A DNA stretch of 64,000 bases from Candidatus Moraniibacteriota bacterium (GCA_963778555.1 CAVZUR010000005.1:97756-161755); one strand, 5' to 3'; counted from the stretch's first letter, positions 4,601-56,174 are shown. Numbers and translations: made by a program. The notes: generated by a model not told the origin, from the sequence alone.

Positions 4601-5629
4601 CGATTGAAGAAGAATATCATCCCGTTTGATAGTGTCCTGGATAATCTCGCCTCATTGACGCCCGTTACCTACAACTGGAGAAGTGATGAATTTCCGGATA
4701 AGCATTTCGGAGAAGCTGTGCAGCGCGGTCTGATTGCTCAGGATGTACAACGGGTATTTCCAGAGCTTGTGAAACAGGATGACGATGGCTATCTGCAGAT
4801 TGATTTTTCGAGCATTCAGTTCTATCTCTTGCAAGGTATCAAGGAAGAATACGCGTTGATTCAAGACCAATCAAACAGTATCGCCGCATTGTCTCTGGAG
4901 ACGACAGCTAGTATCACGACCTTGTCTGAACTCGAAGCAGCCGTTGAGGGACAGTTGATACTCGCGAGCGCGAACTTCACGACGCTGGCGGAAAAAGATG
5001 CCTTGATTGATACCAAACTGACAGAACATGATACGTACTTCGCCCGCGACCTGGCGCGGCTCGACGCAATTGATGCGCTGACGGCTCAGATGGCGCTCGA
5101 TCAGAACGCAGCCGCGGCCAACCTGGTGACGCTTCAGACTGAAATGACGGTTTTGACCGAGCAAGTCGGCACGCTCATGGAATTCTTCAACACGCTGGAC
5201 CTCGGCAATATGGTCGCGAAAGACGAGCTCGGCAATGTCGACCTGCTCGGCGGCACGCTCCGGGCCACTGCGCTCGCCACTGGCGGTATCACTATCGAAG
5301 TTGCCGATGAAGAGGCTCCGACCATTGGAACAGCGATGATCCTTCCAGTCGAGACGGACGCGGACGGCGATGGCAAAGATGATGAGACTGGTTCGGACGG
5401 CAAGAGTACGAGCGTCCTGACAAAAGCAATGATCCCGATGATCAACGGCTCACGCATCTTCACGAGCTTCAAGGGCAATCCGAACGCGTTTAGCTGGATC
5501 GAAAAGATCGTCACTGATGACGGGGAGTATGTCGGATTCAAGATCCGCGTCTCGGCGCCGGTCACGGAAAAGATCAAGGTCGACTGGTGGCTGATCGAGC
5601 AGAAGGATACGTTCTCGTCGAATCCATAA
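1481..5629 (+). CDS. Giant Thr/Gly/Ala-rich repetitive surface fibre-like protein with a C-terminal tail-fibre intramolecular chaperone (Peptidase_S74-like) domain
   Basis: 1382-aa uninterrupted ORF with low-complexity T/G/A/S repeats and an internal 105-aa tandem repeat. It continues with CSSDERLKKNI...VTYNW...GLIAQDVQRVFPELV, an Ala/Leu/Glu-rich helical segment and a ~150-aa terminal domain. Genuine coding appears to join this frame only near ~1620; the listed ATG is not the real start. Confidence 0.8.
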   Translation: MLNPPSRIQLASMECKSTSPTTHPLRETPKMRFGFRTRSRERHRQCGRSLLLLDNADTTATGTTIVTDAIAITNSGGSNFTNFLNTPTLDISAAGAITGATGITSSGNITFSSLTAGSVLFAGTSGILQQDNANFFWDDTNNRLGIGDTTPDGRFDFDLASTSTTAANEYGGNYTFTDTGVVTTGTDNTIGESVTVTRTGATGGTISTYGSLITATADTAGAGTSAIIGQYVTASGADTTYGFYANVTGTTSATSYGYLSNVTDATTGANTNYAEALQITDTGVVTAGTDITVGDYITVTRTGATGGTINTYGDEIIITTDNAGAGTSTATGELIDTGTAGTTNADTTYGLYVATEANAGTTAFGIYVDAGIQAGTEYAGIFMNGNVGVGDATPLSLFTVGNGDLFQVNSSGAIAAAAGVTSSGTITFSGLSTAGIVTNTAGGVLGTTTAVAATLGGTGFSSYAVGDLLYANTTTSLAKLADVAAGSCLISGGVGVAPTWGVCGAISADSLDFVDFQDTLDLDANLVLNQTTFTWDQSFTGTTTNGFTYTAASLTSGYAMDLNVNGAAVLTSGGALNIDGPTGAAAQAAGSLFKITTTGAVTGTDGSGNSSQISSATVTGTVSSISDAAVMTTTGDLLTLTANAATTTTGLQTINATGLTTGYAMDLNVNGAAVLTSGGAINIDGPTGAAAQASGALLNITTTGAVTGTAGIGNSLQVTSATVTGTVASITDAATMTTTGNLLTLTGNAATTATGLLTVNANGLTTGSAVNIASTATGLTTGGALQTITHSGSNAANIGSLLSLQNTGTASGNISLLIQHNATGTGNLAFRVNDIAGDTTPVVIDGTGQFGIGTAAPTTLFELYGTGSADAIATLTAPDATFDPILKYRTGATPAVQFSLGIDNTDSDKFKIFSGDGVGSGDEFVIDSNGVTTIANLNLGATTFDSDAGAIVWTDMPVTATTAAATVMSYSAQIDATNLMTMYSESNGTGGIQNTRVGILTTAPLDVLHVAGDVRVGTGTTGCVKDADATVLTGTCSSDERLKKNIIPFDSVLDNLASLTPVTYNWRSDEFPDKHFGEAVQRGLIAQDVQRVFPELVKQDDDGYLQIDFSSIQFYLLQGIKEEYALIQDQSNSIAALSLETTASITTLSELEAAVEGQLILASANFTTLAEKDALIDTKLTEHDTYFARDLARLDAIDALTAQMALDQNAAAANLVTLQTEMTVLTEQVGTLMEFFNTLDLGNMVAKDELGNVDLLGGTLRATALATGGITIEVADEEAPTIGTAMILPVETDADGDGKDDETGSDGKSTSVLTKAMIPMINGSRIFTSFKGNPNAFSWIEKIVTDDGEYVGFKIRVSAPVTEKIKVDWWLIEQKDTFSSNP
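3143..3772 (+). repeat. Two in-frame 315-nt (105-aa) tandem repeats inside the giant protein
   Basis: T(S/T)GYAMDLNVNGAAVLTSGGA(L/I)NIDGPTGAAAQA...SATVTGTV.SI.DAA.MTTTG.LLTLT.NAATT.TGL occurs twice, starting at 3143 and 3458. A degraded, frameshifted third copy lies at ~205-700. Confidence 0.85.
4586..4870 (+). other. Peptidase_S74-like intramolecular chaperone / autoproteolysis domain (domain-level feature)
   Basis: The S-D-E-R-L-K-K-N motif, with Ser at the expected self-cleavage position, is followed by PVTYNW and GLIAQDVQ. These are signature elements of the phage tailspike/endosialidase C-terminal chaperone domain (recalled as Pfam PF13884). Confidence 0.7.
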
Positions 5630-6015: not shown

Positions 6016-6576
6016 CTATTTCTGTTTAAAAAAATGACGCTTCAGGTGTTCTACATCATTGAGAGTGATCACTGTGGCCACTCGGACGTATGGTTCGGCG
6101 CCGTATAAGTGGACTAATTTCAAGATAGCCGACTCATACGGGTATGGGGAAACAAAGACGCTTTGTTGAAGTTTATAAAACTCCAATGTCTGGAGATGTT
6201 CACGCAGGACGTCTCGAAATGCTCGATTGGCTTCCGGAATATCGAAGAGAACCAGGCGCCACTTCTTATCCCACGCTTTCGGCTTTCTCAAATGGATAGA
6301 ATCACCGAAAAGGCTGAGTACTTGAGCTTCACGTTGACCCTCTTTGGTCAGCACTAAGCGGTACGAACCATCCGAAAGCTTCAATTCCCTAAAGAGTTTT
6401 TGGTGCGACAGCCGACGAAGAGAACGATTGAAACTTCGCTGGTCGATCTCCTTCCATCCGGCATGGGCGAGTCTGAGCGCTCTGAAATACTGAGCGGGGG
6501 ATTGAACTGCGCCGAGCGCCACCCCAGTCAAGAGCACAAGAAGAATTTTCTGCTGTACTGGACCGAATTTATACAT
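6016..6576 (-). CDS. PaaX-family-like putative transcriptional regulator
   Basis: 186 aa. The N-terminal region is winged-helix-like. The central motif KKWRLVLFDIPEANRAFRDVLREHLQTLEFYKLQQSVFVSPYP matches the W-x-L-V-x-FDIPE...R...LR..L...GF..LQ.SVW..P signature of PaaX-type regulators. Confidence 0.6.
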   Translation of the reverse strand: MYKFGPVQQKILLVLLTGVALGAVQSPAQYFRALRLAHAGWKEIDQRSFNRSLRRLSHQKLFRELKLSDGSYRLVLTKEGQREAQVLSLFGDSIHLRKPKAWDKKWRLVLFDIPEANRAFRDVLREHLQTLEFYKLQQSVFVSPYPYESAILKLVHLYGAEPYVRVATVITLNDVEHLKRHFFKQK

Positions 6577-6780: not shown

Positions 6781-7843
6781 TTACTGGCCGACTTCTTTCC
6801 AGTTGAAGTCGCACGCCCGAGTACCGGGACAGGTGACAATGGTTCCGCAGCCATCATCGATGGTGAAACTTGCCACTGGGTCATTCGAGCATTTATTGAC
6901 AGAAATCGCGGTGGAACTGGCACTCGCACAGGAATTGGTCGGGACGCAGACCACGTTGGCTATCGCGAAGGCAGAAGCGTGAAGTCCGAGGTACGGCGTG
7001 ACGCTAATAGTGCTTGACCCAGTGGATACGCCTCGAGCCGTCCGTCCTCTAGGACTGCCATCGTTATTTCCCACCCTTGCGACATTTTGATTTGAGCTGA
7101 GCCAGGCGACAGCATCGGTCACATCAGTCGTACCAGTGAGGTTGCTGCAATCAATAGTTCCGCCACCGGCACGGTAATAGGCATTGAACTGGAAGGGCGT
7201 GATGCCTATAATCGCTGAGGCGGGACAAATCTTGAAATCCGCACCACCGAGAACCGTCACGGTGGCCTGTGCCGTGGTGACGCCGCTAGAATTGGTGGCA
7301 ACGAGTGTAAATATCGTGGTACTCGTCAGCAAGGGTGTTGAAATCGAGCCGATCGGTCCCAAAAACGGTCCACCAACCCCATTATCGATGAACACGGAAG
7401 TCGCACCAGGAATATTCCAGTTGAGGGTAGTAGCGGTATTGTTGGGAATGGTAGCTGGAAACGCCCAAAAGGCTCCGGGGGCGATGACGGGGGGGACAAC
7501 AGGCGCGGCGACGCTGCAGACTCCGCCGCATTGGTATGCGCCGGGACAACATTGGCCCAAGACATTGCAACTGGAACAAGGCAGGCCGTAGAGCGGCTCG
7601 ATCATGGAGGTTCAATATCGCACAGGAGGCGGGGACGACGAGTCCGCCGGCTTCGCCCGATGGAGATGTCGCCGCAATCTGGATTTCGGAAGAATACGCT
7701 GCTATGGGGGCCGAGCGGGGAGTTTGATACGAAAAGAAAAACCCACCCGCCAGGAAGGTTACGAGAGCAATTGAAAGGAAGAGAACCTTATTTTGTTTTG
7801 ATGCAATCCGGATTATTTTCCGGATTTTTTTACGCAAAGACAT
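6781..7843 (-). pseudogene. Secreted/membrane-anchored Cys-rich protein with Ig-like (Big_2-like) repeats, split by one apparent frameshift near 7600-7615
   Basis: ORF 7382-7879 supplies the start (MSLRKKIRKI at 7843) and a TM anchor (VLFLSIALVTFLAGGFFF), then runs into an Arg-rich nonsense frame. ORF 6781-7605 carries the plausible protein (CSSCNVLGQCCPGAYQCGGVCS, then beta-rich Big_2-like segments) but has no signal peptide. Removing one C in aacctccatgatc would join the two frames. Confidence 0.55.
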
Positions 7844-7921
7844 ACCTTTTGTTTCGAGGGAATCAACACCAATCCACAACCATAGTATACATGTTTTTCC
7901 GGCTTTTCTAAACCATGGAGG

Positions 7922-8740
7922 CTATTTGTCAAGTAGCCCGAGATTATGTCGGATGACACTTCGAGTTTCCTCGAGACCGGCCGCGTAGAGGGCTGGATCA
8001 TTTCCCGGATACGCCCGGCCCCAATCAGTTGGGCTCATGTGTTCGCTTGCGAGGAGTGCGGTCTCTAGAGCCTTTCGAGCAGCTTCTTTTTCTCCAAGAT
8101 TGAGGAGCGCGGTACCATAAATGTTGTTCAGCCAGGGATTGCCGTGAGCCTGTCTGAGGCCGGCTGCTGCTGTGTCGCGAGTCTTTTCATACTCACCTAG
8201 CTTGAAGTAAATCCACGCCAAGTCGTTGTAGCCGGCCCAATTGAAGGAATCGCGTTTGATGAATTCGCTGAATCCCCAGATTGCGCTTTCATAGTCGCCT
8301 CTATATCCACTAATGAGCCCCTGCATATAGTAGGCCCGCTTGAATTCAGGATCTATACGGAGTACGGTGTCCATCTCAATCCGCGCCGATTCGAATCTTC
8401 CACTGATGAAATGGATGCGTCCGAGCTGGAAATGCGCTTCCAAAAAATCAGGATGTAATTCAATCGCTCTTGTGTAAGCAGACTCCGCTTTCTTAATGTC
8501 ATATGCTTCTCCATCCCCGAAATAGCTATCGCCGATTTTTAGAAACAGATCTGGATTGCTACGATTAACGAAAGTGGCAACCGTTTCCAACCCAAGACCG
8601 GGCCAGAAGGAATAGAGTTGCGGGATATGGAAACATGCGTAGGTACTGGAGAAAAGGGCAATAACAGTCCCAACCAACAGCACAGTGGAGGGCCTCATTT
8701 TGAGAGTCAGAGAAGTGATGGAATCCGTGATTTTATTCAT
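7922..8740 (-). CDS. Tetratricopeptide-repeat protein with an N-terminal membrane anchor
   Basis: 272 aa. TM segment VLLVGTVIALFSSTYACF, followed by repeated TPR-like units (A..Y..AI.L.P.F.EA...LG, YY.QG...G.Y..A...F, AW.YFKLGEYEKT). Confidence 0.75.
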   Translation of the reverse strand: MNKITDSITSLTLKMRPSTVLLVGTVIALFSSTYACFHIPQLYSFWPGLGLETVATFVNRSNPDLFLKIGDSYFGDGEAYDIKKAESAYTRAIELHPDFLEAHFQLGRIHFISGRFESARIEMDTVLRIDPEFKRAYYMQGLISGYRGDYESAIWGFSEFIKRDSFNWAGYNDLAWIYFKLGEYEKTRDTAAAGLRQAHGNPWLNNIYGTALLNLGEKEAARKALETALLASEHMSPTDWGRAYPGNDPALYAAGLEETRSVIRHNLGLLDK

Positions 8741-8807: not shown

Positions 8808-10277
8808 TCATGGGAACATATGCGGCAACGGATTCAGCTTCCACTCGGTGACACCTTTGGAAGCAGCGAATTCCTCCAAACGGTCGCTGTCGAAGGTGCC
8901 CTGGCACTCGAGGAGATAGAGGGGGAAAGCCTTCGGTACATAGACTTGGGCGATGTAGAACCCGAGCTTGGCTTGGATGGGATGCTTGGGGAAATAGGCA
9001 ATCGGGTAGTAGTCAGGGCCTCTTTTTCTCAGAACGGAGAGGCAGGCTTTCAGTTGGGTAGCATCATCGGTCGCTGAGGTGAGATCCTTTTGGCAGAGTT
9101 CCGCGTAGGAAACCTGCTTGCCGGAGAGGAACCACTGGAATTGCTGGATCTTTTCGGGACCGCGCCAGTAGAGTTGCCGTCCGATTTGACCGAGAACAGA
9201 AACGAATGGTTCGGATTGAGCATCCTTTTCCAGCTGCCGCTTATCACCCTCGTAATAAAACATTTCTGAGCTTATCACTATTTCTCTTAGAGAATGCCGT
9301 ATCGCTTGTTCGAATGTTGTCGCACTGGCGCCGCTCAGAACAATCTGAGGAGTCGCGCTCTTTGAGTTTAGGGCAGCAATAACGATAGACGGAATAGAGA
9401 GCGTTGTCACATCTACGATATGTAAAGACAGGCCGCATGATTCCAACGGGCGTATGATTTCCTGCATCTCCTCGGGGAGTGTTTCTACATCAATGATCCG
9501 CGGAGGAATCTGAGTGAGCCAGTGGACCAAGAATGCATCGCGCTCGATTGTTTCGAGGAGCCCACGCAGGAGAGCGCCATTTTTTGTGAAGTACCCGGCT
9601 GATCCGCTGGTCGTGGCGTTGACGAGAGGGGCTTCAGTGGAATAATTTTTGACGCACCATGAGGTCACTTGCCGCGGGATATACGTTTGTTCTTGCGTAA
9701 TGAGATTAATTCCACTCAGCCAATCCATCGGACGGGACGGGTCATGCTGGAGTTCCCGGTAATGCTCTCTTTGGATGTCCAAGAAGCGATGGTATTTCGG
9801 CGGGTAGAGTACTGGAAACTTTTTGAGCAGTTCGTTCGATGAAGCGATTAGTATGTCGGTATCCTTATTATACAAACCAGAAATGATGCGCTCAAGCATT
9901 TCGCCGATCGCTTTGGAAATAGCAGTCGCCCTATCTTTCGCAATCCCATGGCCGCTCACGCTCCGAAGATGTCCACGCACGACTACTTCTTTTTCCAGGG
10001 AATAAAAAAAGTATCCGGGAAAATGGAGACTTCTTTCTGCCATCGCATCGACGAGCCCTTTTTTTTTCAGATAAGTGTAAAGGGTTTCAGAGGCAGAGGT
10101 GACATCATCCGTGTGAGCAATATGCAGACTGTCCGCAAGCCAGGAATATCGGACGAATTGTTTTAATAAGCAAATCCGTATCCGATCGCCGATTCCCAGC
10201 GGTATTCGCCAGGGTCCGAACTTGTCCATAATTGGTTTCTTTCGTTTGATTTCGTCTGGTCTAACCGAATGTACCAA
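8808..10277 (-). CDS. YcaO-domain protein (cyclodehydratase-type), copy 1, intact
   Basis: 489 aa. VSGHGIAKDRATAISKAIGEMLERI (YcaO ATP/Mg motif region), TTSGSAGYFT, LLETIERDAFLVHW and the Pro-rich C-terminus NPLPHMFP (PxPxP-like). An alternative start MDKFGPW at 10229 aligns with the paralog. Confidence 0.8.
   Translation of the reverse strand: MVHSVRPDEIKRKKPIMDKFGPWRIPLGIGDRIRICLLKQFVRYSWLADSLHIAHTDDVTSASETLYTYLKKKGLVDAMAERSLHFPGYFFYSLEKEVVVRGHLRSVSGHGIAKDRATAISKAIGEMLERIISGLYNKDTDILIASSNELLKKFPVLYPPKYHRFLDIQREHYRELQHDPSRPMDWLSGINLITQEQTYIPRQVTSWCVKNYSTEAPLVNATTSGSAGYFTKNGALLRGLLETIERDAFLVHWLTQIPPRIIDVETLPEEMQEIIRPLESCGLSLHIVDVTTLSIPSIVIAALNSKSATPQIVLSGASATTFEQAIRHSLREIVISSEMFYYEGDKRQLEKDAQSEPFVSVLGQIGRQLYWRGPEKIQQFQWFLSGKQVSYAELCQKDLTSATDDATQLKACLSVLRKRGPDYYPIAYFPKHPIQAKLGFYIAQVYVPKAFPLYLLECQGTFDSDRLEEFAASKGVTEWKLNPLPHMFP
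8815..9178. repeat. Identical tract A shared in inverted orientation with 13299-13661 (364 vs 363 nt)
   Basis: The reverse complement of 8815-9178 matched 13299-13661 base for base where I compared it. The only difference is one C missing from a C5 run in the second copy (C4 at 13552-13555). Confidence 0.85.
9670..9919. repeat. Identical tract B shared in inverted orientation with 12544-12793 (250 nt)
   Basis: The reverse complement of 9670-9919 equals 12544-12793 by eye. It encodes AFSKAIGEMLERIISGLYNKDTDILIASSNELLKKFPVLYPPKYHRFLDIQREHYRELQHDPSRPMDWLSGINLITQEQTYIPR in both paralogs. Confidence 0.85.
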
Positions 10278-10359
10278 TATACAGAGTGATGTGGATAGTT
10301 TTACATGGAGATGTCATACAAGTACACCTACGTTTCTCCTGGTGTATTTTATCATGCAT

Positions 10360-10394
10360 AAAAAAACAGGAGCCATGTGACAACACGACTCCTG
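10360..10394 (-). terminator. Rho-independent terminator (minus strand) after the 10426-11241 gene
   Basis: Minus-strand stem caggag/ctcctg (10367-10372 / 10389-10394) followed by T7 (A7 at 10360-10366 on the plus strand). A second small hairpin, ccctca-gcgtt-tgaggg, lies just upstream. Confidence 0.6.
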
Positions 10395-10425
10395 GAATTT
10401 GCACCCTCAGCGTTTGAGGGCAGTC

Positions 10426-11241
10426 TCAATTACTTGCAGCGGCAGATTCCTTTTGGAAGACCGTGCTGTTTTGCCCATCACTCCCGCCATAACCGGCCCA
10501 CAGCTCATCGCCATGATTGGTGAAATAACATGTTCCACCCGCTCCCCCGCAGGGGAAAGCGAATTTCCCGTCCTTGATCTCTGCGGACTGGATCTTGCCG
10601 CTTGGTTTTTGCTGTGTGCCGTATATGAATTTGACCACACACTTCGCGTCGATTTCGCCGATCCAGAGCCACCGCTTGCCATAGCCCCAGTTTCCTGTCC
10701 AGCCACCGATGAAGGCGGCACAGGCTACTGGCACGTCGGCAGCCACCGGCTTGACCGAAAAGCCAGCTTCACGCTGAGGTTGCAAAGCCGCCAATTCTGT
10801 TTCGGCAAGTTTTCGGATGCTGACCGCCCGGGACTGTCCATTTGCGTCCGTGATAGTCCCGTTAAACGTGCCGTCTGGGTTTTGGGATGCTACGACCTTG
10901 CCCCCCAATCGGGTAATAAGCGATAACGTACGACCTTGAGCGGTCTCAATCATCTCTGCGCTAATCGGGAGCGGTTGCAGTCTCGGAAGACCGAGAGCAG
11001 CGTTGAGCGCGACTTTTCCAGTGTCGCCTTGTTTCGTTCCGCCAGAAAGCTGCAACGTCAGTGTTCGGTCGCTGCCGACGACCGTAATGAGCCATGAAGA
11101 GTTCAGATCGAATGGCAGCTGACTTGTCAGTGCCGCCAGAGTGATACTGTCGCTAGAGGCCTTCATCTGGGCGAAGCCAATGCTTGGCAGGCTGGAAAAA
11201 ACAGAGAAAAAAACCGAAAAGAGAATCGAAAGTGCCCGCAT
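10426..11241 (-). CDS. Secreted protein of unknown function
   Basis: 271 aa with a signal-peptide-like N-terminus, MRALSILFSVFFSVFSSLPSIGFAQ. No motif recognised. It sits between the two YcaO genes and is divergent from the SagB-like gene. Confidence 0.7.
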   Translation of the reverse strand: MRALSILFSVFFSVFSSLPSIGFAQMKASSDSITLAALTSQLPFDLNSSWLITVVGSDRTLTLQLSGGTKQGDTGKVALNAALGLPRLQPLPISAEMIETAQGRTLSLITRLGGKVVASQNPDGTFNGTITDANGQSRAVSIRKLAETELAALQPQREAGFSVKPVAADVPVACAAFIGGWTGNWGYGKRWLWIGEIDAKCVVKFIYGTQQKPSGKIQSAEIKDGKFAFPCGGAGGTCYFTNHGDELWAGYGGSDGQNSTVFQKESAAASN

Positions 11242-11397
11242 GATAAACTACTCCTTGGTTGATTGGTAAGGGACAGCACCGCCACTATACCATATTTGCT
11301 ATATAAGTCAAATAGTAGTATTCCGTTTACGCATTGCTTTAAGTGCCGCTTTTTTTCTGCATTCTTCATTTACGACATATAATGGAAAGACCTCCGT

Positions 11398-12141
11398 ATG
11401 CATACATTTCTCTACAATTTTTTTCATCACGAGACCAATGATCGGACGGAAAAGGGCCTGGTGAGTATTCCGGCAGACAAGGGGCGCTGGCCGGAGTCAT
11501 GGAAAACGATAACGTGCAAACGGTATTCTCTGTTTCCGGAGGTTGAGCTTCCTGAAACGAGCGGGTCTTTGTTTGAGCAGCTCTTGCGAGAACGCAGATC
11601 GAGCGAAGGGCATATCGTGGGGAATATCCTCACTCTGCCCGTACTTGCCTATATCCTGCAGTGTGGGTATGGCCTGCAGGGCGGGAGCGAAGGAGATCAG
11701 AGGAAAGCGAACCGAACCGTTCCTTCCGGCGGGGGACGATATCCGCTCGAAGTGTATGTTTTTCTCTTCAAGCCGATTGGCACTTGCGTTTCGGGAATCT
11801 ATCATTACAGTGTGAAGCATCATTCCTTGGAACCAGTTGCGCTCATGCCATTCACGCTTGAAGATATTGGTTCTTTCGCACCGGAGCAGGCGTGGCTCCA
11901 GGATACGAACGGGATGATTTGCATCACGAGTGTGTTTCAGAGAACGGTTGAAAAATACGGCAGCCGCGGGTATCGCTACATCTTGCTGGAGGCTGGGCAT
12001 GCTGCTCAGAATATGCTGCTCGCCGGAACCGAAAAGGGCGTGAACATCATCCCGATTGGCGGCGTAGAGGCTGATAAAATAGAAAAAAAACTTGGCCTGA
12101 GCGGGGAAGAAGAAGGGGTCGTGTATACGCTCTTTTTATAA
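11398..12141 (+). CDS. SagB-type (nitroreductase-fold, FMN) dehydrogenase
   Basis: 247 aa. RTVPSGGGRYPLEVYVF, GIYHYSVKHHSLEPV, QRTVEKYGSRGYRYILLEAGHAAQNMLLAG and IPIGGVEADKIEKKLGLSGEEEGVVYTLFL match the SagB/ThcOx dehydrogenase signature (R..PS.G..YP.E.Y; KYG.R.YRY.L.EAGH..QN). Confidence 0.8.
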   Translation: MHTFLYNFFHHETNDRTEKGLVSIPADKGRWPESWKTITCKRYSLFPEVELPETSGSLFEQLLRERRSSEGHIVGNILTLPVLAYILQCGYGLQGGSEGDQRKANRTVPSGGGRYPLEVYVFLFKPIGTCVSGIYHYSVKHHSLEPVALMPFTLEDIGSFAPEQAWLQDTNGMICITSVFQRTVEKYGSRGYRYILLEAGHAAQNMLLAGTEKGVNIIPIGGVEADKIEKKLGLSGEEEGVVYTLFL

Positions 12142-12152
12142 TAAACCCTAGT

Positions 12153-13668
12153 ATGCGGAGCGACTCCTCTTCAAAATTTTTCCATTGCTCGGGATACCTC
12201 TCCCTTAGGGAGTATGTGGAGGATATCGAGTCGATGAGGCAGCATGGCCCGTGGCGGCTCCCGCTCGGCATCGGCGACCGGGTGCAGATTTTCTTTTTCT
12301 CCCTGATTCTGAAATACTCCTGGTTTTCTGATGCGTTGAGCATACGGTATCCCTATACGTGGAGCCCAGCGTATTCGGTGCTCATCGCCTATCTGAAAAG
12401 GTGTGGCGTAGTCGATGTGGTCCGGGAGCAGAATGCGAATCGCAGCGGATATTCCTTCTTCTCCCTTCAAAGGGGCATTTCCATAAATGAAAATATTCGG
12501 ACCATCGGCGGTCTGGGAGTCGACCAAGAGGTCTCGACGGCGTTTTCCAAAGCGATCGGCGAAATGCTTGAGCGCATCATTTCTGGTTTGTATAATAAGG
12601 ATACCGACATACTAATCGCTTCATCGAACGAACTGCTCAAAAAGTTTCCAGTACTCTACCCGCCGAAATACCATCGCTTCTTGGACATCCAAAGAGAGCA
12701 TTACCGGGAACTCCAGCATGACCCGTCCCGTCCGATGGATTGGCTGAGTGGAATTAATCTCATTACGCAAGAACAAACGTATATCCCGCGGCATATTGTT
12801 TCGTGGTTTGGGTTTGCCGAAGCGCGCGTGTTCAAAGACATTCTCCTGCATCCGACATCCAATGGCTGTGCCGGGTACTTTACGAAGACGGGTGCTGTTT
12901 TGCGAGGGCTGATCGAAGCAGTGCAACGGGACGCTTTTCTCGTCCATTGGCTCACGCAGATCGCCCCTGATCGCATCATCGAGGACACTCTGTCGCTAGA
13001 AATTCAGAAACAAGTCGGGGAATTCAAGGCGCGTGGAATCACCCTGCATATTCTCGATGTCACAGCTCTTTCTATCCCGTCCGTATCCATTGTGGCAATC
13101 AATGCTGAATCGGAAACTCCGCAGATTATTTTGAGCGGCGCAGAGCGGCGACATTTGAGCGGGCGGTGCAGGACGCACTCCGTGAAATGGTGCTGATGTC
13201 AGCGACTATGTTCTACCAAGGAGAAGCTAATAATAGAAAGAAAGAGCCTATGTTAGCAGAGCCGCAGCCATTCGTTTCTGATCTCAATGAGAAAACCAGG
13301 CAACTCTACTGGCGCGGTCCCGAAAAGATCCAGCAATTCCAGTGGTTCCTCTCCGGCAAGCAGGTTTCCTACGCGGAACTCTGCCAAAAGGATCTCACCT
13401 CAGCGACCGATGATGCTACCCAACTGAAAGCCTGCCTCTCCGTTCTGAGAAAAAGAGGCCCTGACTACTACCCGATTGCCTATTTCCCCAAGCATCCCAT
13501 CCAAGCCAAGCTCGGGTTCTACATCGCCCAAGTCTATGTACCGAAGGCTTTCCCCTCTATCTCCTCGAGTGCCAGGGCACCTTCGACAGCGACCGTTTGG
13601 AGGAATTCGCTGCTTCCAAAGGTGTCACCGAGTGGAAGCTGAATCCGTTGCCGCATATGTTTTCTTGA
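12153..13668 (+). pseudogene. YcaO-domain protein, copy 2, interrupted by two 1-nt deletions (about 13141-13147 and 13552-13555)
   Basis: ORFs 12153-13196 and 13166-13642, plus a third frame to the stop at 13666-13668, together reconstruct a full YcaO colinear with copy 1. IILSGA|AATFERAVQDALREMVLMSATMFY requires a +1 shift. KAFP|LYLLECQGTFDSDRLEEFAASKGVTEWKLNPLPHMFS requires another, at a C4 run that is C5 in copy 1. Confidence 0.75.
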
Positions 13669-13777: not shown

Positions 13778-14470
13778 ATGTTTCAGAAAGTCAGGCGAGT
13801 TGCGAGCAGAAAACTCCTGTTTCTTGTTGGCGTATCTTTGGCCGGTATCCTTGGCATCCTGGGCAGTTATACGCGGACGAACTATTCGAAAAGCGGTTCG
13901 CTGGTTGTCCCAAAGGCGCAGGCGGATACCCCTCCCACTTGTGCTTCGTGCGGTTGCGCCTATACTGAGGACCAATGCGTTACATACTGGTCCTGTTTTC
14001 CGGCCGACACGCCTATCAGCACACCAGCCGGTAAGCGAGTCATACAGGAGCTGGCGGTCGGAGACAGCGTGCTTGGTTTCGACATTGAAACCGGCCGGAC
14101 CGGAGAATACCCGGTGACCAGAACCTTCAAACACGGCCGAAACGATGCGAATACCGTGTATTCTCCGCTGATTCAGATTACGCATGCAAAAGGATCGTTC
14201 CTCGCGACGGATAATCATTGGATCTATCGGCGCAATGGCCGGGTCGGGGAATACGCCAATTTTGACCGTGTCGGAACGCTTCAAGTCGGTGACATGCTGA
14301 CGACAGAAAGCGGCGAAGAGGTGGCGGTGACAGCGATCGAACCGGGGCCCGAGTATGATTTTGTGTACAATCTCGAGGTGGCGGAGGCCCATACGTATTT
14401 CGCTAGCGGTATCCGGGTACACAATAGCGGCAGTGGACCTGGTGGCTGTTGTGGCTCTTCAGGAAAATAA
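13778..14470 (+). CDS. Small membrane-anchored Cys/Ser/Gly-rich peptide interrupted by a complete Hint/mini-intein domain
   Basis: 230 aa from the ATG at 13778 (the ORF track starts at a TTG at 13682). Residues 1-72: basic N-terminus, TM LLFLVGVSLAGILGILG, then TPPTCASCGCAYTEDQCVTYWS. Residues 73-216: Hint domain. Residues 217-230: SGSGPGGCCGSSGK. Confidence 0.8.
   Translation: MFQKVRRVASRKLLFLVGVSLAGILGILGSYTRTNYSKSGSLVVPKAQADTPPTCASCGCAYTEDQCVTYWSCFPADTPISTPAGKRVIQELAVGDSVLGFDIETGRTGEYPVTRTFKHGRNDANTVYSPLIQITHAKGSFLATDNHWIYRRNGRVGEYANFDRVGTLQVGDMLTTESGEEVAVTAIEPGPEYDFVYNLEVAEAHTYFASGIRVHNSGSGPGGCCGSSGK
13994..14425 (+). other. Mini-intein / Hint domain (144 aa) with all canonical class-1 splicing residues
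   Basis: Cys1 (CFPADTPISTPAG), block B TxxH (LATDNHWIY), C-terminal blocks EYDFVYNLEVAEAHTYFASGIRVHN, and a +1 Ser. No homing-endonuclease insert is present. Confidence 0.8.
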
Positions 14471-14534: not shown

Positions 14535-15761
14535 ATGGAAACTGAAGCCGATATCCGAACTCCCGCTGGAGACTCGAGGGAGAAAAATAAAAAGATTCGG
14601 TTGACCGGAAAAGTCGTTCTTGTTGTCATGCTAATAGTCGCCCTTGCATATGGGGCGTTGTATTTGTTCGAGAAGAATACCTGGTATAAATTGAGATCCG
14701 ATCGGACAATTTATACACCGGCCAATGATAACGCGTATACCGAAAGTCTCCTAAATAATAATCCGAAGCTATTGCAGGATTCGTTTGTGGCCGATGTCGA
14801 AAGCGGAGTGAATGATAAGTTTACCAAGTCAGATGCCTATTTCCTGACCCACCGGTACTTTGATAACGGCGGAAATGTCTACGAAATCTATGATTATGTA
14901 AACAGCCATCCGAGTCTGGAATTTCTCAAGGAAGCCGAAGAAATTTACCCGGCTATTTTTGATCAGCTACGGACCAAAACGCTTTCCCCGGTGCCATATT
15001 CCAGGCAATCTCTGTATGCAGTTCTGGCATATCTGGAAGTACTTGATAAGCACGGGTATGCGGATATCGCCGCTCTGGGCACGCTCGCTAATCAATATGC
15101 GAAGACGGCCTATTTCATAAAAAAGAGATCAGAAAACGATCCTGCTGGTGGCTTGGATCCGGCTCCAATGATACGGCAAGCGACGGAAAAAGCGATTGTG
15201 TTCGAATTGAAAACCAGAGATGTGATGCTGGGAATGTCTAAGGGTAATCAGTCTCTCGTGAAAAGTATAGCGAGTCGACCGAAATCGCTTGATTCGAGAT
15301 CGCCTCTGCGGAAGAATTTTTCGAAGGAAATAACAGCCCAATCATTGATTACCGGACTTAATCAGTATGCCGCCTGTCTTCGATATTTGGAGGTCACGGG
15401 AATTGCCATCTCGATCATCGATTCACCCGTGCAAGCGAATGATGTTTTTTCCTTCAGCATGTTATTTGCAGAAACCTATGTTCCAGAAATGGAGGTATTT
15501 ACGTCGCTCCTCAATGCCTCGACGCTCGCTTTGGTGAGTCCGGAGAGTGCTGATGCTATCAAGACTGCTCTCCAACCGATTCTGGAGTACGATCTTACTC
15601 AAGAATTGGGGATAATTCGCCTTCTCTTTGAGGCGAAGGACGACAAATTCGGCGGCTGGGATATATATGGAAAAAGGAATGCCATAATGCTGGCCAATAT
15701 CGTTCCTGAGTTCAAGGCATGGCTTATTGCGGGAGGGTGGGAAGAACCTGATTTTCAGTAG
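14535..15761 (+). CDS. Membrane-anchored protein of unknown function
   Basis: 408 aa. N-terminal TM VVLVVMLIVALAYGALYLF followed by a mostly helical soluble region. No motif recognised. Same strand as, and immediately after, the Hint gene. Confidence 0.7.
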   Translation: METEADIRTPAGDSREKNKKIRLTGKVVLVVMLIVALAYGALYLFEKNTWYKLRSDRTIYTPANDNAYTESLLNNNPKLLQDSFVADVESGVNDKFTKSDAYFLTHRYFDNGGNVYEIYDYVNSHPSLEFLKEAEEIYPAIFDQLRTKTLSPVPYSRQSLYAVLAYLEVLDKHGYADIAALGTLANQYAKTAYFIKKRSENDPAGGLDPAPMIRQATEKAIVFELKTRDVMLGMSKGNQSLVKSIASRPKSLDSRSPLRKNFSKEITAQSLITGLNQYAACLRYLEVTGIAISIIDSPVQANDVFSFSMLFAETYVPEMEVFTSLLNASTLALVSPESADAIKTALQPILEYDLTQELGIIRLLFEAKDDKFGGWDIYGKRNAIMLANIVPEFKAWLIAGGWEEPDFQ

Positions 15762-15875: not shown

Positions 15876-16571
15876 ATGAAGACGGTTTTGATTATCGGAG
15901 GGTCTTCGGGGATTGGAAGCGCCTGCGTACGTACTTTCGAACAATCAGGGTGGAATGTTTTTTCCACCTTCTATTCAAATAAAAAAACAACCAGCAAAGG
16001 ATCTTCCGTCACCTGGAGCTTCCTAGACATAAAGAATATTCCAGCTGGTTTTTTTGATACCCTGCCAAAAATCGATGCGGTGCTAATTTGTGCTGCCAAA
16101 AATGTAAGCCAGGACCTGAATAATTTACAGAAGAGTGACACAGAGGAAATTGTAAACACGAATCTCATCGGACAGATTGAGTTCATCAAACTCCTCAAGG
16201 ATAAAAAGGGTGCGGAGCTGTCCTCGATAGTACTTTTCGGCTCGACCGTGCCAATGACAGGTTTTAAAAGAAGAATCGCTTACGGTATAACGAAAGCCGC
16301 GATAGAGGGCCTTACGAAAACGCTGGCAATGGAATTTTCCCCCAATACCCGCGTGAATTGCATTGTACCGGGATATATCAAGACAGGTTTGTATTTCAAA
16401 AATAGCGCTATCAGTGATACGGATAGAGCAAGGAAAATCCTTTTAGGGCGGTTGGGCGACCCGGAAGAGGTTGCAAAACTTGCCTTTTTCCTATCTTCGG
16501 AAAACGCTTCCTATATAAACGGAGAATCGATTGGGATTAATGGCGGTTTTAACTATGAGTATGAAGTCTAG
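15876..16571 (+). CDS. Short-chain dehydrogenase/reductase (candidate ribulose-5-P reductase half of a split CDP-ribitol synthase)
   Basis: 231 aa. LIIGGSSGIGSA (TGxxxGxG-type NAD(P) site) and YGITKAAIEGLTKTLA (YxxxK). It overlaps the downstream cytidylyltransferase gene by 17 nt. Confidence 0.75.
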   Translation: MKTVLIIGGSSGIGSACVRTFEQSGWNVFSTFYSNKKTTSKGSSVTWSFLDIKNIPAGFFDTLPKIDAVLICAAKNVSQDLNNLQKSDTEEIVNTNLIGQIEFIKLLKDKKGAELSSIVLFGSTVPMTGFKRRIAYGITKAAIEGLTKTLAMEFSPNTRVNCIVPGYIKTGLYFKNSAISDTDRARKILLGRLGDPEEVAKLAFFLSSENASYINGESIGINGGFNYEYEV

Positions 16572-17247
16572 CAATGGTAAGTTTGCGTGTATAATTCTTG
16601 CTGCAGGCAAGTCCGAAAGGTTTAATGCGAATAAACTCTTTGCGACCCTTACCAAAGGACCCCTTCTTTTTATGGTTGTCGATTCCATTTTATCTTTTAA
16701 GTTGCTTGGTAAGTTAGTGATTGTCGCAGCGAAGGGGGATTTTGATCGAATTCAGAAAAGATATGGACGGAATCAAGAAGTGAACGTCGTTGTCGGTGGA
16801 ATAAACCGAACGGAAAGCACGCTACGGGGCCTGCATGTTGTCGCACAGGGGGGATACGAATATGTCTATGTTCACGACGGATCTCGCCGACTCTTTACGA
16901 GAAATGATTTTATCCGGCTCAAGAGAGAGTTGCTGTCAAAGAATCTGGATGGAGTTGTCCAATATGTCAAGATATACGATTCGCTCATGAGTTTCGATGG
17001 GAGTATTGAAAACAACAATAGTTATCTCGACAAAACGAGGGTAGTGCAATTAAAGACACCCCACGTTTACAAAGTGGGTTCAATCTTAAAATGTCTGACT
17101 CAGTATAAACCTCAAGTCAGGAGAGAATTGGAGAACGTTGAAATCATGTCTTTGTACGGGAAAGAAATAGGATTTATCGATGGTTCTATCGCCAATATAA
17201 AAATTACTTACAAAAGTGATTTACGGGTCATTAAAAAGCTGTTGTGA
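16555..17247 (+). CDS. IspD/TarI-family sugar-phosphate cytidylyltransferase
   Basis: About 230 aa from the ATG at 16555. CIILAAGKSERF (ILAAGxGxR P-loop-like motif), VHDGSRRL. Its stop overlaps the GTG start of the next gene (gtga at 17244-17247). Confidence 0.7.
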   Translation: MSMKSSNGKFACIILAAGKSERFNANKLFATLTKGPLLFMVVDSILSFKLLGKLVIVAAKGDFDRIQKRYGRNQEVNVVVGGINRTESTLRGLHVVAQGGYEYVYVHDGSRRLFTRNDFIRLKRELLSKNLDGVVQYVKIYDSLMSFDGSIENNNSYLDKTRVVQLKTPHVYKVGSILKCLTQYKPQVRRELENVEIMSLYGKEIGFIDGSIANIKITYKSDLRVIKKLL

Positions 17248-19388
17248 AAAAGATATCTTTCGTCGTCTATTATCCGTATCAGTGGTTTATCTATCGGAAT
17301 ATCTATAGACAGATACCGGCTGACAAGCGGGAAGTCATCGTTGATCTGAGCGATAATCCGGGACTTCAGGATGAGGAAGTAAGGATGAGCATCGCTTCTT
17401 TGCTTCAACGAGAGAGCGTTCCGTTTCGGGTCCTCGAGAAAGTGATTTGTTTCAATCGGAAACTGCTTCAGGATTTTTTCACTGATGTCGAGGTCATCGT
17501 ATCTTGCTGGGAAAACGGTTGCGTGTCGAACAATGCCCTGCGACATATTAAAAAAGTAAACGTGACTTACGGAATAGCCAAAGAATTGACGATGCTCCGG
17601 CCAACGCGTTCGATCTACGATGTCATATTGGCGTATGGCGCGCGTGATCAGCGGTATTTCGAATTGCTCACGAAATCCATAGCCATCGGTAATCCGCGAC
17701 TGGACAATTATTACCGTGGCATAGCTGATGATTCCATTCGGGAAAAACTGTCAAGATATTTCAAAGATAAAAAAAAGAAAACCATACTGTATGTTCCGAC
17801 TCACGGAGATCTCGGGTCATTTCATGAAATGTTACCTACGTTCGCACGGATATCGAGACAATATAATATCATTTTTAAGCCACACTATTATACTTTGAGG
17901 GAGGAGAAAGAGATTATAGAAAAGTACCGGCAGATAGAGTCGCTTTTGGTCATCGATGACACGTGGGACACGATTGAAGTTATGTCCGTAAGCGATATCA
18001 TCGTGAGCGATAACTCGAGCGCTATTTTCGATGCGATGCAGATCGATAAGCCGTTAATCGTATGTGATTTTCTGGATAATCAATTTATAGATACTATTCA
18101 TAAAAAAATCCGTCTTGCAAAAAAAGGAACGGGAATACTTACGGCGCTGACGTATTCAGACAGTTTGGAACAGGAGATAAAAAGAGGAGGTCTAGCAATG
18201 ACCATAAAAAAACCGAATGATATTGATGACCTTCTGGAAAACATAGATGACACAGACGGCCGGTATCGGGACTTTCGGAAAGAAATCGTTGCTGCGAATT
18301 TCAAATATGTTGATGGTCATTCGTCTGAAAGAGCTGTCGAGATCATTCTGCGAATATACGGCACGAAGAGGACGCATGTGCCGGGTATCCTGCACCATGC
18401 ATACCTCGCGTATAATAACCGAGCGTATCAATGGAGTATCGAATCTGAACACAAGGAAACTGTCCTTACGACTGTCCCGAGTACGACCATTGTCTGGATT
18501 TTCTGCGAGTTGCGTCAGAAGAATGATGAGATTATATGCACCATCTACTCAGCATTGAACGAAAAGGAGGTCACCACAGTCTGTGTTTCGGGGAGTGTCG
18601 GAAAAGATGTGCGTGACACTCTTTCACGGAGTGAATTCTCTGACAGGATTATATTTTTTGAAAATCATGCAGACGGGATAAATCTTGTTTATTCGCGGCT
18701 CGGCATCTGCGATAACCTTCTTGTGGTGAAGGCGAATACTATTATCAAAGACTTGAATACGATATGTAACTTCAAAGTATCCTGTAAACGAGACATGATC
18801 TTTTTTTCTGAAAATATTGTTCCTTTTCCAGAAAATTGGGTAAGCCGACTCTTTTATCAGTTGAAATATGAGATGCTTGGCTTTCGGAGTCTGGCAATGA
18901 ATACGCTGCTCTCTATCCCGTATGAGTTGATCTGTGCTTCCGAAAAGTGCGCCGTTCTCATCGATAGTAAGGCCCTGCTTGCTGTTTCACCACGGCCGGT
19001 TGTAGACACTTTTATCTTCGAGTGGGTTCTTTCGTCTTTTATTAACATTGATTCATTGAAAAGTCAGGGTCGCGATTTTTATGGTACGCTCTGCGATGAT
19101 TATATCCTTATGCCGAATTTCTTCATGAATGGTAGCCGGTCGGCCAATGCGGATATTATTAACAAACTTGTGGCAAAAGGACTGATATTGAATGCTTTAG
19201 GTATCCCCATAAAGCGGTGGCCGGATAAAAAAATCGGTAAACTGCTGTGGAAAATCGCGACTGGCGACTTCAGGCGCTATCAACTCTTGAAATTGATACT
19301 GTTGAAGGTGCTCACTGTGAAAAAGCAAGTATTTCTCAGCAAAGCCCGTTCTTTTTTGGAGAAGGTTTACGCAGATGACGCCCCATAG
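17244..19388 (+). CDS. CDP-alcohol (glycerol/ribitol) phosphotransferase, TagB/TagF/TarL family, with a ~330-aa C-terminal extension
   Basis: 714 aa. ILYVPTHGD, FKPHYYT and VSDIIVSDNSSAIFDAMQIDKPLIVCDFLD match the Glyphos_transf pattern (YaPT.R / KpHp / DYSS..fD....KP). The C-terminal half is unassigned; it may be a degenerate GT-A-like region, but I could not confirm this. Confidence 0.7.
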   Translation: MKKISFVVYYPYQWFIYRNIYRQIPADKREVIVDLSDNPGLQDEEVRMSIASLLQRESVPFRVLEKVICFNRKLLQDFFTDVEVIVSCWENGCVSNNALRHIKKVNVTYGIAKELTMLRPTRSIYDVILAYGARDQRYFELLTKSIAIGNPRLDNYYRGIADDSIREKLSRYFKDKKKKTILYVPTHGDLGSFHEMLPTFARISRQYNIIFKPHYYTLREEKEIIEKYRQIESLLVIDDTWDTIEVMSVSDIIVSDNSSAIFDAMQIDKPLIVCDFLDNQFIDTIHKKIRLAKKGTGILTALTYSDSLEQEIKRGGLAMTIKKPNDIDDLLENIDDTDGRYRDFRKEIVAANFKYVDGHSSERAVEIILRIYGTKRTHVPGILHHAYLAYNNRAYQWSIESEHKETVLTTVPSTTIVWIFCELRQKNDEIICTIYSALNEKEVTTVCVSGSVGKDVRDTLSRSEFSDRIIFFENHADGINLVYSRLGICDNLLVVKANTIIKDLNTICNFKVSCKRDMIFFSENIVPFPENWVSRLFYQLKYEMLGFRSLAMNTLLSIPYELICASEKCAVLIDSKALLAVSPRPVVDTFIFEWVLSSFINIDSLKSQGRDFYGTLCDDYILMPNFFMNGSRSANADIINKLVAKGLILNALGIPIKRWPDKKIGKLLWKIATGDFRRYQLLKLILLKVLTVKKQVFLSKARSFLEKVYADDAP

Positions 19389-19454
19389 TTGTTGAAAGGA
19401 TGACCTAAGGCAGGACAACCAGACTTGAGAATTATGTGCTAGAATGGTCGTAAT

Positions 19455-20888
19455 TTGGCTGAAATGCCATCTCAGAATACATCAATTCCCTCAGATACGA
19501 TAACCGCACGCATCCCTATGGAGATGAAAGGAGTGATAAAGGATAATCAAAATCCTCGGGCCTCGATAGGCATTCTTTGCTCCTTCCTTCCGTTTTTTTT
19601 CGTCTTCGAAAAGGTCTATAAGAATTTGGAAAATGTTGAATTTATTCTTGATTTTACGACTCTCCCCATTGGAATTCCCTATCCAGAGTGGTATAAGGAA
19701 CGAATGCGAAAGTATTTTACAAATCAAAATGTTTATTTTCGCGATCTTGAAGCAAGCAATTTTACCCCGGCAGAGTTTTTTTCGAAATACCACACATTGG
19801 TAAGTGGATCTTTTGATGGTCTGATGGCGCATAAGTGCAATCAAACCAAAAAAAAAGTGCGAGTGATGTATGGCCTCGCCAAAGACCTCAATAGTTTTTC
19901 TCTCACAAATACGCATTTCGACCTGGTAGCATGTCCCTCGGAGTATGTCGCTAAGAGAATGCAAGATCTATGCGGTGTTCGTGTCGCGGTGACCGGTGAT
20001 CCCAAATATGATCGCTACATTCTTGATGCCTCGCCAACACCGCCAAGTATAGAGGAAATTCTAAAAGCGAGTCAGGGCAAGAAGATCGTCTTATTTGCTC
20101 CGACATGGGGGAATCTTTCATCTGAGAAAAGAATCCTCCCCGTTCTTGTGGAGCTATCTCAAAAATATACTGTTTTCTACAAGCCGCATCACATGACAAT
20201 GATATCCCAGTCAGAGGTCATTAAAGACTTCGACAGGATTTCGGATATTCACATAATCTGGGACGATGTGAGTTTCATGGATATGTTGAAGAAAGTCGAT
20301 GTGGTAATCACGGACAATAGCAGCGCTATATTTGACACCATCATTGTTAAAAAACCTCTAGTCCTTATTGATATCACGGTTGAGGGAAAATTTCCTTATG
20401 CAAAATCCCCATTCTATTCTTTTCGGGGGGGGAAATTCGGTGGTGTTTCTACATCACTTGAGAGTCTCGAGCAGGTAGTGAAGGTAGAGGGCCGGGAAAT
20501 TGCTCCAGTAGTACGGCTTTCAAAAAAATTGATTGAGGATACGTTGCCACCACTTGCGACTGCTATCGAAGCGGCAATTGAATCAGCCGGGGGGTTAATT
20601 TATTTGGAACGGCAAAAGCAGGTATTGAATGATTATTCGGGAGTGATTGACGGAAAAGCGGGGGAGCGCATTGCAAGTGAAATCCAATATATGGTCGATA
20701 ATTACGTAGAAGATTCCAAAAGCGCGCTTGAACCATATGTGTATGACTTTCAGCATAAAGTACGCGAGGAGGATCGGGACGTATTTGATTGGGAAAACCA
20801 GGATAGGTTGGATGAACAAAAGATATTGAACATACGGCGGTTACCAATGGTTGAAAAGGTTAAAAAAATCATAGAATTATTCTATTAG
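19455..20888 (+). CDS. CDP-alcohol phosphotransferase, TagB/TagF/TarL family (second copy)
   Basis: 477 aa. KKIVLFAPTWGN, VFYKPHHMT and VDVVITDNSSAIFDTIIVKKPLVLIDI. An ATG at 19464 is an alternative start. Confidence 0.7.
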   Translation: MAEMPSQNTSIPSDTITARIPMEMKGVIKDNQNPRASIGILCSFLPFFFVFEKVYKNLENVEFILDFTTLPIGIPYPEWYKERMRKYFTNQNVYFRDLEASNFTPAEFFSKYHTLVSGSFDGLMAHKCNQTKKKVRVMYGLAKDLNSFSLTNTHFDLVACPSEYVAKRMQDLCGVRVAVTGDPKYDRYILDASPTPPSIEEILKASQGKKIVLFAPTWGNLSSEKRILPVLVELSQKYTVFYKPHHMTMISQSEVIKDFDRISDIHIIWDDVSFMDMLKKVDVVITDNSSAIFDTIIVKKPLVLIDITVEGKFPYAKSPFYSFRGGKFGGVSTSLESLEQVVKVEGREIAPVVRLSKKLIEDTLPPLATAIEAAIESAGGLIYLERQKQVLNDYSGVIDGKAGERIASEIQYMVDNYVEDSKSALEPYVYDFQHKVREEDRDVFDWENQDRLDEQKILNIRRLPMVEKVKKIIELFY

Positions 20889-35053: not shown

Positions 35054-35111
35054 ACCTAACAGTGGGAGGCCAGTATCAAAGGCAGGATCAGTTATGAGCG
35101 GCCGGAACAGT

Positions 35112-54931: not shown

Positions 54932-56174
<1,243 letters not shown>

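Follow-up and report, generated by a model that had tools for sequence, protein, structure and literature searches.

Which peptide is modified, and by what route, at a locus that carries two YcaO genes and a SagB-type dehydrogenase gene and no recognisable partner protein? The question is raised by positions 8,808 to 13,668 of a stretch of 64,000 nucleotides from Candidatus Moraniibacteriota bacterium (GCA_963778555.1, CAVZUR010000005.1:97756-161755), here called the window. A minimal cluster for a linear azol(in)e-containing peptide (LAP) consists of a precursor, a YcaO protein, usually an E1- or ThiF-like partner, and a dehydrogenase. In the usual route to peptides that are made on the ribosome and modified after translation (RiPPs), the leader docks on a RiPP recognition element (RRE) or on an E1-like partner and is removed by a separate protease. 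A first-pass annotation of the window had reported neither a partner nor a leader-peptide gene and had named a Hint-interrupted peptide, encoded just downstream, as one possible substrate. The analysis presented here favours, with a probability of roughly 0.6, a maturation locus for a linear azole peptide (thiazole/oxazole-modified microcin (TOMM)/LAP-like) of a type belonging to the Candidate Phyla Radiation (CPR). The precursor gene is the open reading frame (ORF) of that Hint-interrupted peptide. Coordinates of all features of the locus are collected in Table 1.

About 25 related loci (individual ones are denoted L001 and so on) were compared with the window; neighbourhood counts refer to 21 non-redundant loci, for which the window proteins were searched against all locus ORFs and then clustered. 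A short precursor-like ORF was found in 14 of the 21 loci by BLAST clustering and in 18 by phmmer. The leader of the Hint ORF is homologous to these ~90-aa precursors, which strongly backs the earlier suggestion that the Hint-interrupted peptide is the substrate and overturns the statement that a leader-peptide gene is lacking. The match to the L004 precursor had E = 1.9e-10 (phmmer), and homology extended to the leaders of 19 precursor ORFs from related loci and of 15 representative proteins. Across the family the leader is 45-50 aa long, with a K/R-rich start, ~20 hydrophobic residues and the consensus S-Y-x-R-S-N-Y-S-K-x-x-S-L-x-x-P-x-A-x-A↓D. The cores, of 19-78 aa, consist to 58-88% of Cys, Ser, Thr, Gly and Asp and carry motifs such as GDGCGGCSG. 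The gaps at 10278-10425 and 11242-11397 hold no small Cys/Ser/Thr-rich ORF, as had been reported.

The core of the window precursor is split by a 144-aa domain for which PT-HINT is the top Pfam model. The domain contains C73 (Cys1), T144-D-N-H147 (block B), H215-N216 (the terminal HN) and S217 at position +1; it matched TIGR01443 (intein_Cterm) at 25.1 bits (cutoff 15.6) and Pfam Intein_splicing at 16.6 bits (cutoff 35.8). Its sequence matches in the PDB include Hint modules of toxin-type proteins and the bacterial intein-like domain 2lwy. All of 12 further database proteins of the same design keep Cys1, T.NH and HN; position +1 holds S or T in nine of them (S in seven, T in two) and Y, D, G or K elsewhere, and the C-extein reads GGCCGSSGK or GGCCGSS in eight. 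Once spliced in silico, the window product can be aligned colinearly, through the junction, to the L023 precursor, which is uninterrupted (40% identity, E = 2e-17). An exhaustive search of 1.84 billion representatives with leader plus N-extein yielded 15 more relatives, mostly short and uninterrupted, and the cores of several (P0254, P0255 and P0258 have the motif) read C..CGC.[WY]T..QC..Y...G.G.GCC, that is, N-extein directly joined to C-extein. Because the uninterrupted relatives are colinear with the spliced product, the window Hint is an insertion into a pre-existing core. Judged by its residues, it looks splicing-competent. Homologous Hint domains occupy other positions in the same family: in L012-L015 the domain lies between duplicated leader-end motifs ('P.A.AD') with Arg at +1, and in two tandem genes of L016 it follows the core with only two residues beyond it. 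The sequences of these variants imply that canonical splicing would not occur and that N- or C-terminal cleavage would take its place.

Regarding the modifying enzymes, the TOMM SagD type (TIGR03604, 150.5 bits) was the top NCBIfam model for YcaO1, with lower scores for the McrA-thioamidation type (TIGR03266, 64.6 bits, cutoff 365) and the kinase type (51.4 bits); the best family match is thus of the azoline rather than the thioamidation kind, as the first-pass annotation had assumed. Translation probably starts at the ATG at 10229, as it does in the database protein P0001. In P0001 numbering, residues E110, E113, R114, E226, R230 and D231 are invariant across 38 YcaO sequences; we take these residues to be ATP/Mg ligands. 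The Glu-x-x-Glu-Arg stretches GEMLER and ETIERD align with Glu/Arg-containing stretches of MusD and of the M. jannaschii YcaO. An AlphaFold2 (AF2) model built on the 38-sequence alignment (predicted local distance difference test score, pLDDT, 89.4; predicted template modelling score, pTM, 0.90) places two helices, modelled with lower confidence, at residues 1-60, ahead of the YcaO fold. The nearest structures found by Foldseek were the cyanobactin/muscoride heterocyclases LynD, MusD and TruD (E ~1e-21, TM ~0.7), with archaeal YcaOs, E. coli YcaO and McbD in the next ranks.

The two-helix extension of YcaO1 carries the motif GPWRIPLGIGDR. As had been claimed, GPWR(I/L)PLGIGDR occurs in both YcaO copies (its W and P are nearly invariant in the 38 family members), but only ~60 residues, not ~110, lie outside the YcaO fold. 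An RRE/PqqD-like or E1-like fold in this extension was considered and rejected: AF2 predicts two helices and no winged helix, and Foldseek matches YcaO domains only.

The dehydrogenase proved to be of the SagB type, not a generic nitroreductase. No ThiF/E1-like, Ocin-ThiF or TfuA domain was found by Pfam in the ~50 ORFs of the window, so that the reported lack of an E1-like or ThiF partner stands. The NCBIfam scan detected no ThiF/E1-like or TfuA protein among the cluster proteins, and none of E1, ThiF or TfuA occurs among the Pfam-annotated genes of L001, L003 and L004.

The first-pass annotation had regarded such a locus as unusual for a reduced-genome episymbiont. This was not borne out: a protein collection yielded 142 relatives of YcaO1 at E <= 0.001, mostly of ~500 aa, the named ones (Kaiserbacteria, Moranbacteria, Pacebacteria and Gracilibacteria) all belong to the CPR, and a published CPR survey reports such clusters in the passages used here (PMC7298704). 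A scan of species-representative genomes gave 22 loci, all in metagenome-assembled genomes and most labelled CPR/Patescibacteria; some automated third-party annotation records among them are labelled Saccharibacteria or Bdellovibrionales. Besides YcaO (21 of the 21 non-redundant loci) and SagB (20, adjoining YcaO), the conserved neighbourhood comprises one to three homologues of the window's DUF408 protein (16 loci), the TPR protein (16), a fusion of a phosphoribosyltransferase (PRTase) with a PQQ-like beta-propeller (13) and a Cys-rich surface protein, family 6, adjoining the TPR gene (11). The usual order is surface protein and TPR on the minus strand, in some cases a secreted Cys protein, then propeller, SagB, YcaO, precursor and DUF408 on the plus strand. 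The precursor gene lies directly 3' of YcaO in most loci, and DUF408 genes cluster with it, in most loci directly 3' of it. The propeller protein, of ~550 aa with a weak phosphoribosyltransferase domain, is encoded immediately upstream of SagB in many loci; it was recorded in L001, L003-L005, L007-L013, L017, L019 and L021-L024, and has no counterpart in the 64-kb window.

Table 1. Features of the YcaO/SagB locus and its precursor gene in the window (positions counted from the first letter of the window).
Feature	Position	Strand	Remarks
Family 6, Cys-rich membrane-anchored surface protein	6781-7879	-	split into ORFs 7382-7879 and 6781-7605
TPR protein with N-terminal hydrophobic anchor	7922-8740	-	Pfam TPR families
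YcaO1, partner-less YcaO cyclodehydratase, intact	8808-10277	-	Pfam YcaO PF02624, 131.9 bits
Left arm, 3' end of YcaO1	8815-9178	.	pairs with 13299-13661; exact over 257 + 110 nt, one C-run base between
Left arm, 250 nt, within YcaO domain	9670-9919	.	exact match, pairs with 12544-12793
Terminator-like hairpin, 12-bp stem and T-run (T7)	10367-10394	-	consensus scan; between secreted-protein gene and YcaO1
Secreted 271-aa protein	10426-11241	-	signal-peptide-like N-terminus
SagB-type flavin mononucleotide (FMN) dehydrogenase (azoline oxidase family)	11398-12141	+	TIGR03605 108.1 bits (cutoff 78.4); Pfam Nitroreductase 56 bits
YcaO2, second, older paralogue in canonical position after SagB, frame-broken	12153-13668	+	alignment to YcaO1
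Right arm, 250 nt	12544-12793	.	exact match, pairs with 9670-9919
Right arm, 3' end of YcaO2	13299-13661	.	pairs with 8815-9178
Hint-split precursor ORF, ~230 aa	13778-14470	+	leader homologous to ~90-aa precursors of related loci
Precursor leader, 49 aa	13778-13924	+	K/R-rich start, ~20 hydrophobic residues, SYTRTNYSKSGSLVVPKAQA to conserved A-x-A↓D
N-terminal core half (N-extein), DTPPTCASCGCAYTEDQCVTYWS	13925-13993	+	relatives compared
Hint/bacterial-intein-like domain, 144 aa	13994-14425	+	PT-HINT 54.8 bits (cutoff 27.7)
C-terminal core half (C-extein), +1 Ser, SGSGPGGCCGSSGK and stop codon	14426-14470	+	relatives compared
DUF408, membrane-anchored all-alpha helical-repeat protein	14535-15761	+	conserved in related loci

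Among the accessory genes, the 271-aa protein has the signal-peptide-like start expected from its earlier description as secreted. It gave no Pfam or NCBIfam match, and its C-terminal four-Cys domain of ~100 aa (CAAFIGGWTGNW...GGTC) recurs in 13 locus records (phmmer). The hairpin between its gene and YcaO1 suggests that the two may not simply be co-transcribed; the total count from the promoter and terminator consensus scan was not above that of shuffled sequence. In the family-6 gene the frame breaks near 7605-7625, between membrane anchor and body, at a junction with two similar 'IEP' codon runs in different frames. Its N-terminal 'SPSGEAGGLVVPASC' matches a 712-aa protein of L004, and its Pfam match to Big_2 is weak. 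At 6016-6576(-), just upstream of the cluster, is a gene whose 186-aa product carries a PaaX central Cas2-like domain (78.6 bits) and could be a regulator.

The two outward-facing YcaO genes of the first-pass annotation were recovered as YcaO1 and a second frame, but YcaO2 is not intact: compared with YcaO1, a single nucleotide is missing after 13140 and another from the C-run at 13552-13555, so that the gene falls into ORFs 12153-13196 and 13166-13642. With both bases restored, it encodes a conserved 505-aa YcaO in an open frame. YcaO2 as sequenced is either a pseudogene or the product of assembly errors; the inverted repeats may mislead an assembler, and at least one unrelated gene and the family-6 gene are also frame-broken. 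A glycoside hydrolase family 1 (GH1) gene at 54932-56174(-) has a frameshift near 55215, with an extra C as the likely cause and the C-terminal part in ORF 54932-55129; this frameshift in a C-run bears on whether the indels of the assembly are errors.

Both YcaO genes are mosaics. Besides the 250-nt block, the exact inverted matches 8922-9178/13299-13555 (257 nt) and 8815-8924/13552-13661 (110 nt) together form a 368-nt block, and between the identical blocks protein identity is ~35-50%. Outside them, the closest relative of YcaO1 is the L027/P0002 YcaO (68% for the middle region) and those of YcaO2 are P0003, P0009 and the copy in L018 that is linked to SagB (67-71%); the two are therefore old paralogues. 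In L018, SagB and a YcaO2-type gene run leftward in that order, followed by the gene of the secreted 271-aa protein and a YcaO1-type gene running rightward. L029 has the outward-facing layout of the window, with the secreted-protein gene and a YcaO1-type gene on one side and SagB and an intact YcaO2-type gene (502 aa) on the other. L027 runs from the secreted-protein gene through a YcaO1-type gene, a Hint precursor and DUF408 to a short-chain dehydrogenase/reductase (SDR) gene, and L030 from SagB through an intact YcaO2-type gene (505 aa) to a Hint precursor. Both junctions are natural, since the gene that precedes the Hint precursor is YcaO1 in L027 and YcaO2 in L030. Inverting the segment enclosed by the 3' identical blocks turns the L018/L027 arrangement into that of the window. 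The paralogues of L029 again have an identical protein stretch in common, which suggests that gene conversion between them may have been repeated; the L018 copies share no identical DNA block of >=18 nt in the available sequence. On the evidence of these blocks and layouts, YcaO1 and YcaO2 recombine, by gene conversion and by inversion of the intervening segment. A YcaO pair with inverted identical blocks and alternative orientations is a clear case of concerted evolution and inversion in a biosynthetic locus.

Gene content, homology, conserved synteny, the intact Hint catalytic set and the absent partner genes are the observations on which a maturation route may be proposed; we infer its chemistry, the order of its steps, whether the Hint splices or cleaves, how the peptide is exported and what the accessory proteins do. 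A precursor of ~230 aa would be made, with a signal-anchor-like leader and a Gly/Ser/Cys core split by the Hint domain. The Hint would remove itself in the cytoplasm, here, with Ser at +1, probably by protein splicing, joining ...QCVTYWS to SGSGPGGCCGSSGK and recreating the contiguous core of the uninterrupted relatives. The partner-less YcaO (YcaO1, plus YcaO2 if functional) would then use ATP to cyclodehydrate core Cys and Ser residues to azolines, which the SagB flavoprotein would oxidise to azoles. The hydrophobic leader would take the peptide to or through the membrane and be cut at the conserved A-x-A↓D. Outside the cell, the secreted Cys proteins and the two kinds of anchored helical-repeat protein (TPR and DUF408) might act as handlers, receptors or immunity factors.

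Within this linear azole peptide reading, a tentative extension, rather doubtful but worth stating, is that the Hint is not a passive intein but a built-in maturation device of a CPR-specific azole peptide class whose action depends on its position. The window-type Hint would splice two core halves together; the L012-L015 type, with Arg at +1, would free the core from its membrane-anchored leader by C-terminal cleavage; and the L016 type would, by analogy with Hedgehog, form a thioester at the C-terminus of the core for hydrolysis or ligation. The domain would thus replace the missing leader protease, time the partner-less YcaO, or both. If true, cis-acting Hint chemistry would for the first time be seen to mature a natural RiPP precursor family.

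Several points weigh against a linear azole peptide. No leader-recognition element was found, the predicted model of YcaO1 being without an RRE or E1-like domain, and the 150.5 bits of YcaO1 are below the curated SagD cutoff of TIGR03604 (219.25). The C-terminus NPLPHMFP (NPLPHMFP/S; family consensus NPxPHMF) has PxP and a final P/S, not the strict PxPxP motif associated with azoline-forming YcaOs (PMC12338566), and an alignment of the YcaO C-terminus with solved heterocyclases, made to judge this motif, gave no usable match. The leader resembles an export signal and YcaO needs cytoplasmic ATP, and modification would therefore have to precede export. Cores are very Gly/Asp-rich, some with just one or two Cys, and canonical splicing is ruled out for relatives whose Hint is followed by Arg, Asp or Lys at +1. 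The locus may be partly decayed, given the broken frames of YcaO2 and the family-6 gene and the lack of a PRTase/propeller gene in the window. No product has been observed so far.

Decay might go further, with a real cluster family whose product is no longer made in this genome. This is unlikely: the two frameshifts in YcaO2, the split family-6 gene, the absence from the 64 kb of a propeller gene present in 13 of 21 loci and the terminator-like hairpin upstream of YcaO1 would fit it, but YcaO1, SagB, the precursor with all Hint catalytic residues, DUF408, the TPR gene and the secreted-protein gene are intact, and the YcaO2 frame is open and conserved apart from its two indels. These indels may be assembly errors, since a C-run frameshift is also found in GH1, an unrelated gene, and on the short contigs of L027 and L030 the gene set is the same and a propeller gene is likewise lacking. 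A fault in the assembly, either a mis-oriented segment or two collapsed strains, could in principle account for both the outward-facing layout and the identical blocks, and we consider it quite improbable. An assembly graph permits passage in either direction through exact inverted repeats of 250 and 368 nt, one indel lies inside a repeat, and the closest relative, L027, has the other junction (secreted-protein gene, YcaO1, precursor). Independent assemblies nevertheless show the same outward layout (L029) and SagB followed by a YcaO2-type gene and a Hint precursor (L030), and two genes must exist, since the paralogues differ by 50-65% outside the blocks. Both lesions lie in one gene as assembled; with the segment between the 368-nt blocks turned round, neither gene would be intact.

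It is very unlikely that the Hint ORF and its short relatives are membrane-anchored low-complexity surface proteins and no substrates at all, YcaO and SagB acting on the secreted Cys proteins or on the product of a distant gene. The linkage of such ORFs to YcaO is tight and near-universal, directly downstream in most loci, and Cys is scarce in the secreted proteins, which are folded domains; the signal-anchor-like leader, the Gly/Asp-rich low-complexity cores and the recognition domain that was not found speak the other way. C/S-G motifs are typical of azole substrates such as microcin B17, and the cores carry them (GDGCGGCSG, GGCC). Equally little probability is given to another type of amide activation by YcaO, namely thioamide formation, amidine/macroamidine formation or ATP-dependent peptide cleavage, with a different role for the nitroreductase-fold protein. 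The known role of the SagB family is azoline oxidation, and its member here scores above cutoff and adjoins YcaO in 20 of 21 loci; moreover, no TfuA or sulfur-transfer gene is present, and the cores are rich in Cys and Ser. What speaks for such chemistry is the score below the SagD cutoff, the two divergent YcaOs per locus in the sub-lineage of the window, the lack of an E1 partner, as with the stand-alone YcaOs of bottromycin (PMC7136475), and the peptidase activity of MusD-type YcaOs named in the title of structure 7u58.

Elsewhere in the window, at 1481-5629(+), a 1382-aa Thr/Gly/Ala-rich repetitive protein ends in a Peptidase_S74 domain (endosialidase intramolecular chaperone, tail-fibre type; 61.6 bits). 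Downstream of the cluster, 15876-22875(+) is part of a region of lower GC content (42-44%) that reaches ~28 kb and encodes an SDR, an IspD-like cytidylyltransferase, two CDP-glycerol glycerophosphotransferase-like proteins and two GT2 glycosyltransferases (teichoic-acid-like); an SDR-IspD-Glyphos_transf run also adjoins the YcaO cluster in L008, L010, L028 and L029. At 35031-38241(+), at least three ORFs have T4SS_pilin domains (43-58 bits), within a patch of ~62% GC that holds many overlapping long ORFs. A tRNA cluster (Arg-TCT, His-GTG and Lys-CTT) lies at 46062-46414(-), with further tRNAs at 54280, 63033 and 63658.

The cluster is widespread in the CPR, lacks a recognisable partner or protease, has an export-signal-like leader and, in at least three sub-lineages, carries a self-processing Hint domain inside the precursor. 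It also shows which peptide products are conserved by these unculturable, host-dependent bacteria; such products are candidates for mediating interactions between episymbionts and their hosts or competitors. If the Hint is functional, intein-type chemistry would have a natural example in the maturation of a natural product; in the searched literature of this field such chemistry appears only as an engineering tool. That literature contained no natural Hint or intein in RiPP, bacteriocin or microcin precursors, which is absence of evidence only; nor did it describe the conserved accessory set, the export-signal-like leader, the Hint-interrupted precursor or the recombining YcaO pair.

Among known systems, microcin B17 (McbABCD; TOMM/LAP) resembles the locus in that a YcaO and a SagB/McbC-type FMN dehydrogenase adjoin a precursor with a Gly/Ser/Cys-rich core, and in the YcaO fold with its conserved Glu-x-x-Glu-Arg stretches. 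Unlike microcin B17, the window locus has no E1-like (McbB/C-protein) or ThiF-like partner, no RRE and no dedicated protease or ABC exporter in the cluster; its leader is Sec-signal-anchor-like and ends in A-x-A↓D, its YcaO scores below the SagD cutoff, and the CPR clusters have conserved TPR, helical-repeat, secreted-Cys and PRTase/propeller genes. Thioamide-forming YcaO/TfuA systems differ by their TfuA, which the window lacks, and the TIGR03266 score of 64.6 bits is below 365. With BIL (bacterial intein-like)/PT-HINT domains and mini-inteins the window Hint has Cys1, TxxH, the terminal HN and Ser +1 in common, and like inteins it has a host with uninterrupted homologues. In contrast to inteins and BILs, however, the host is a short RiPP-type precursor and not a housekeeping enzyme or polymorphic toxin, and no homing endonuclease is present; Hints occur at three different positions within one precursor family, and some +1 residues are non-nucleophilic.

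Bottromycin clusters likewise hold two divergent stand-alone YcaOs that act partner-free (PMC7136475), a likeness of gene content; unlike the window, they have a follower peptide, form one thiazoline and a macroamidine, lack a SagB-type dehydrogenase and occur in Streptomyces. Also comparable are the CPR LAP clusters of Sharrar et al. 2020, for which the passages used here give a total of 110 YcaO/LAP clusters from 93 further CPR genomes, a nitroreductase adjoining 89 of these clusters, and an example with an 84-aa precursor beside YcaO (PMC7298704). They share with the window the kind of organism and the YcaO and nitroreductase pair. The published example has a peptidase, unlike the window, and those same passages make no mention of a Hint-containing precursor, conserved accessory genes, paired YcaO paralogues or a missing partner. 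YcaO/nitroreductase clusters in the CPR were already known, and what is new relative to the literature searched is the Hint-split precursor family.

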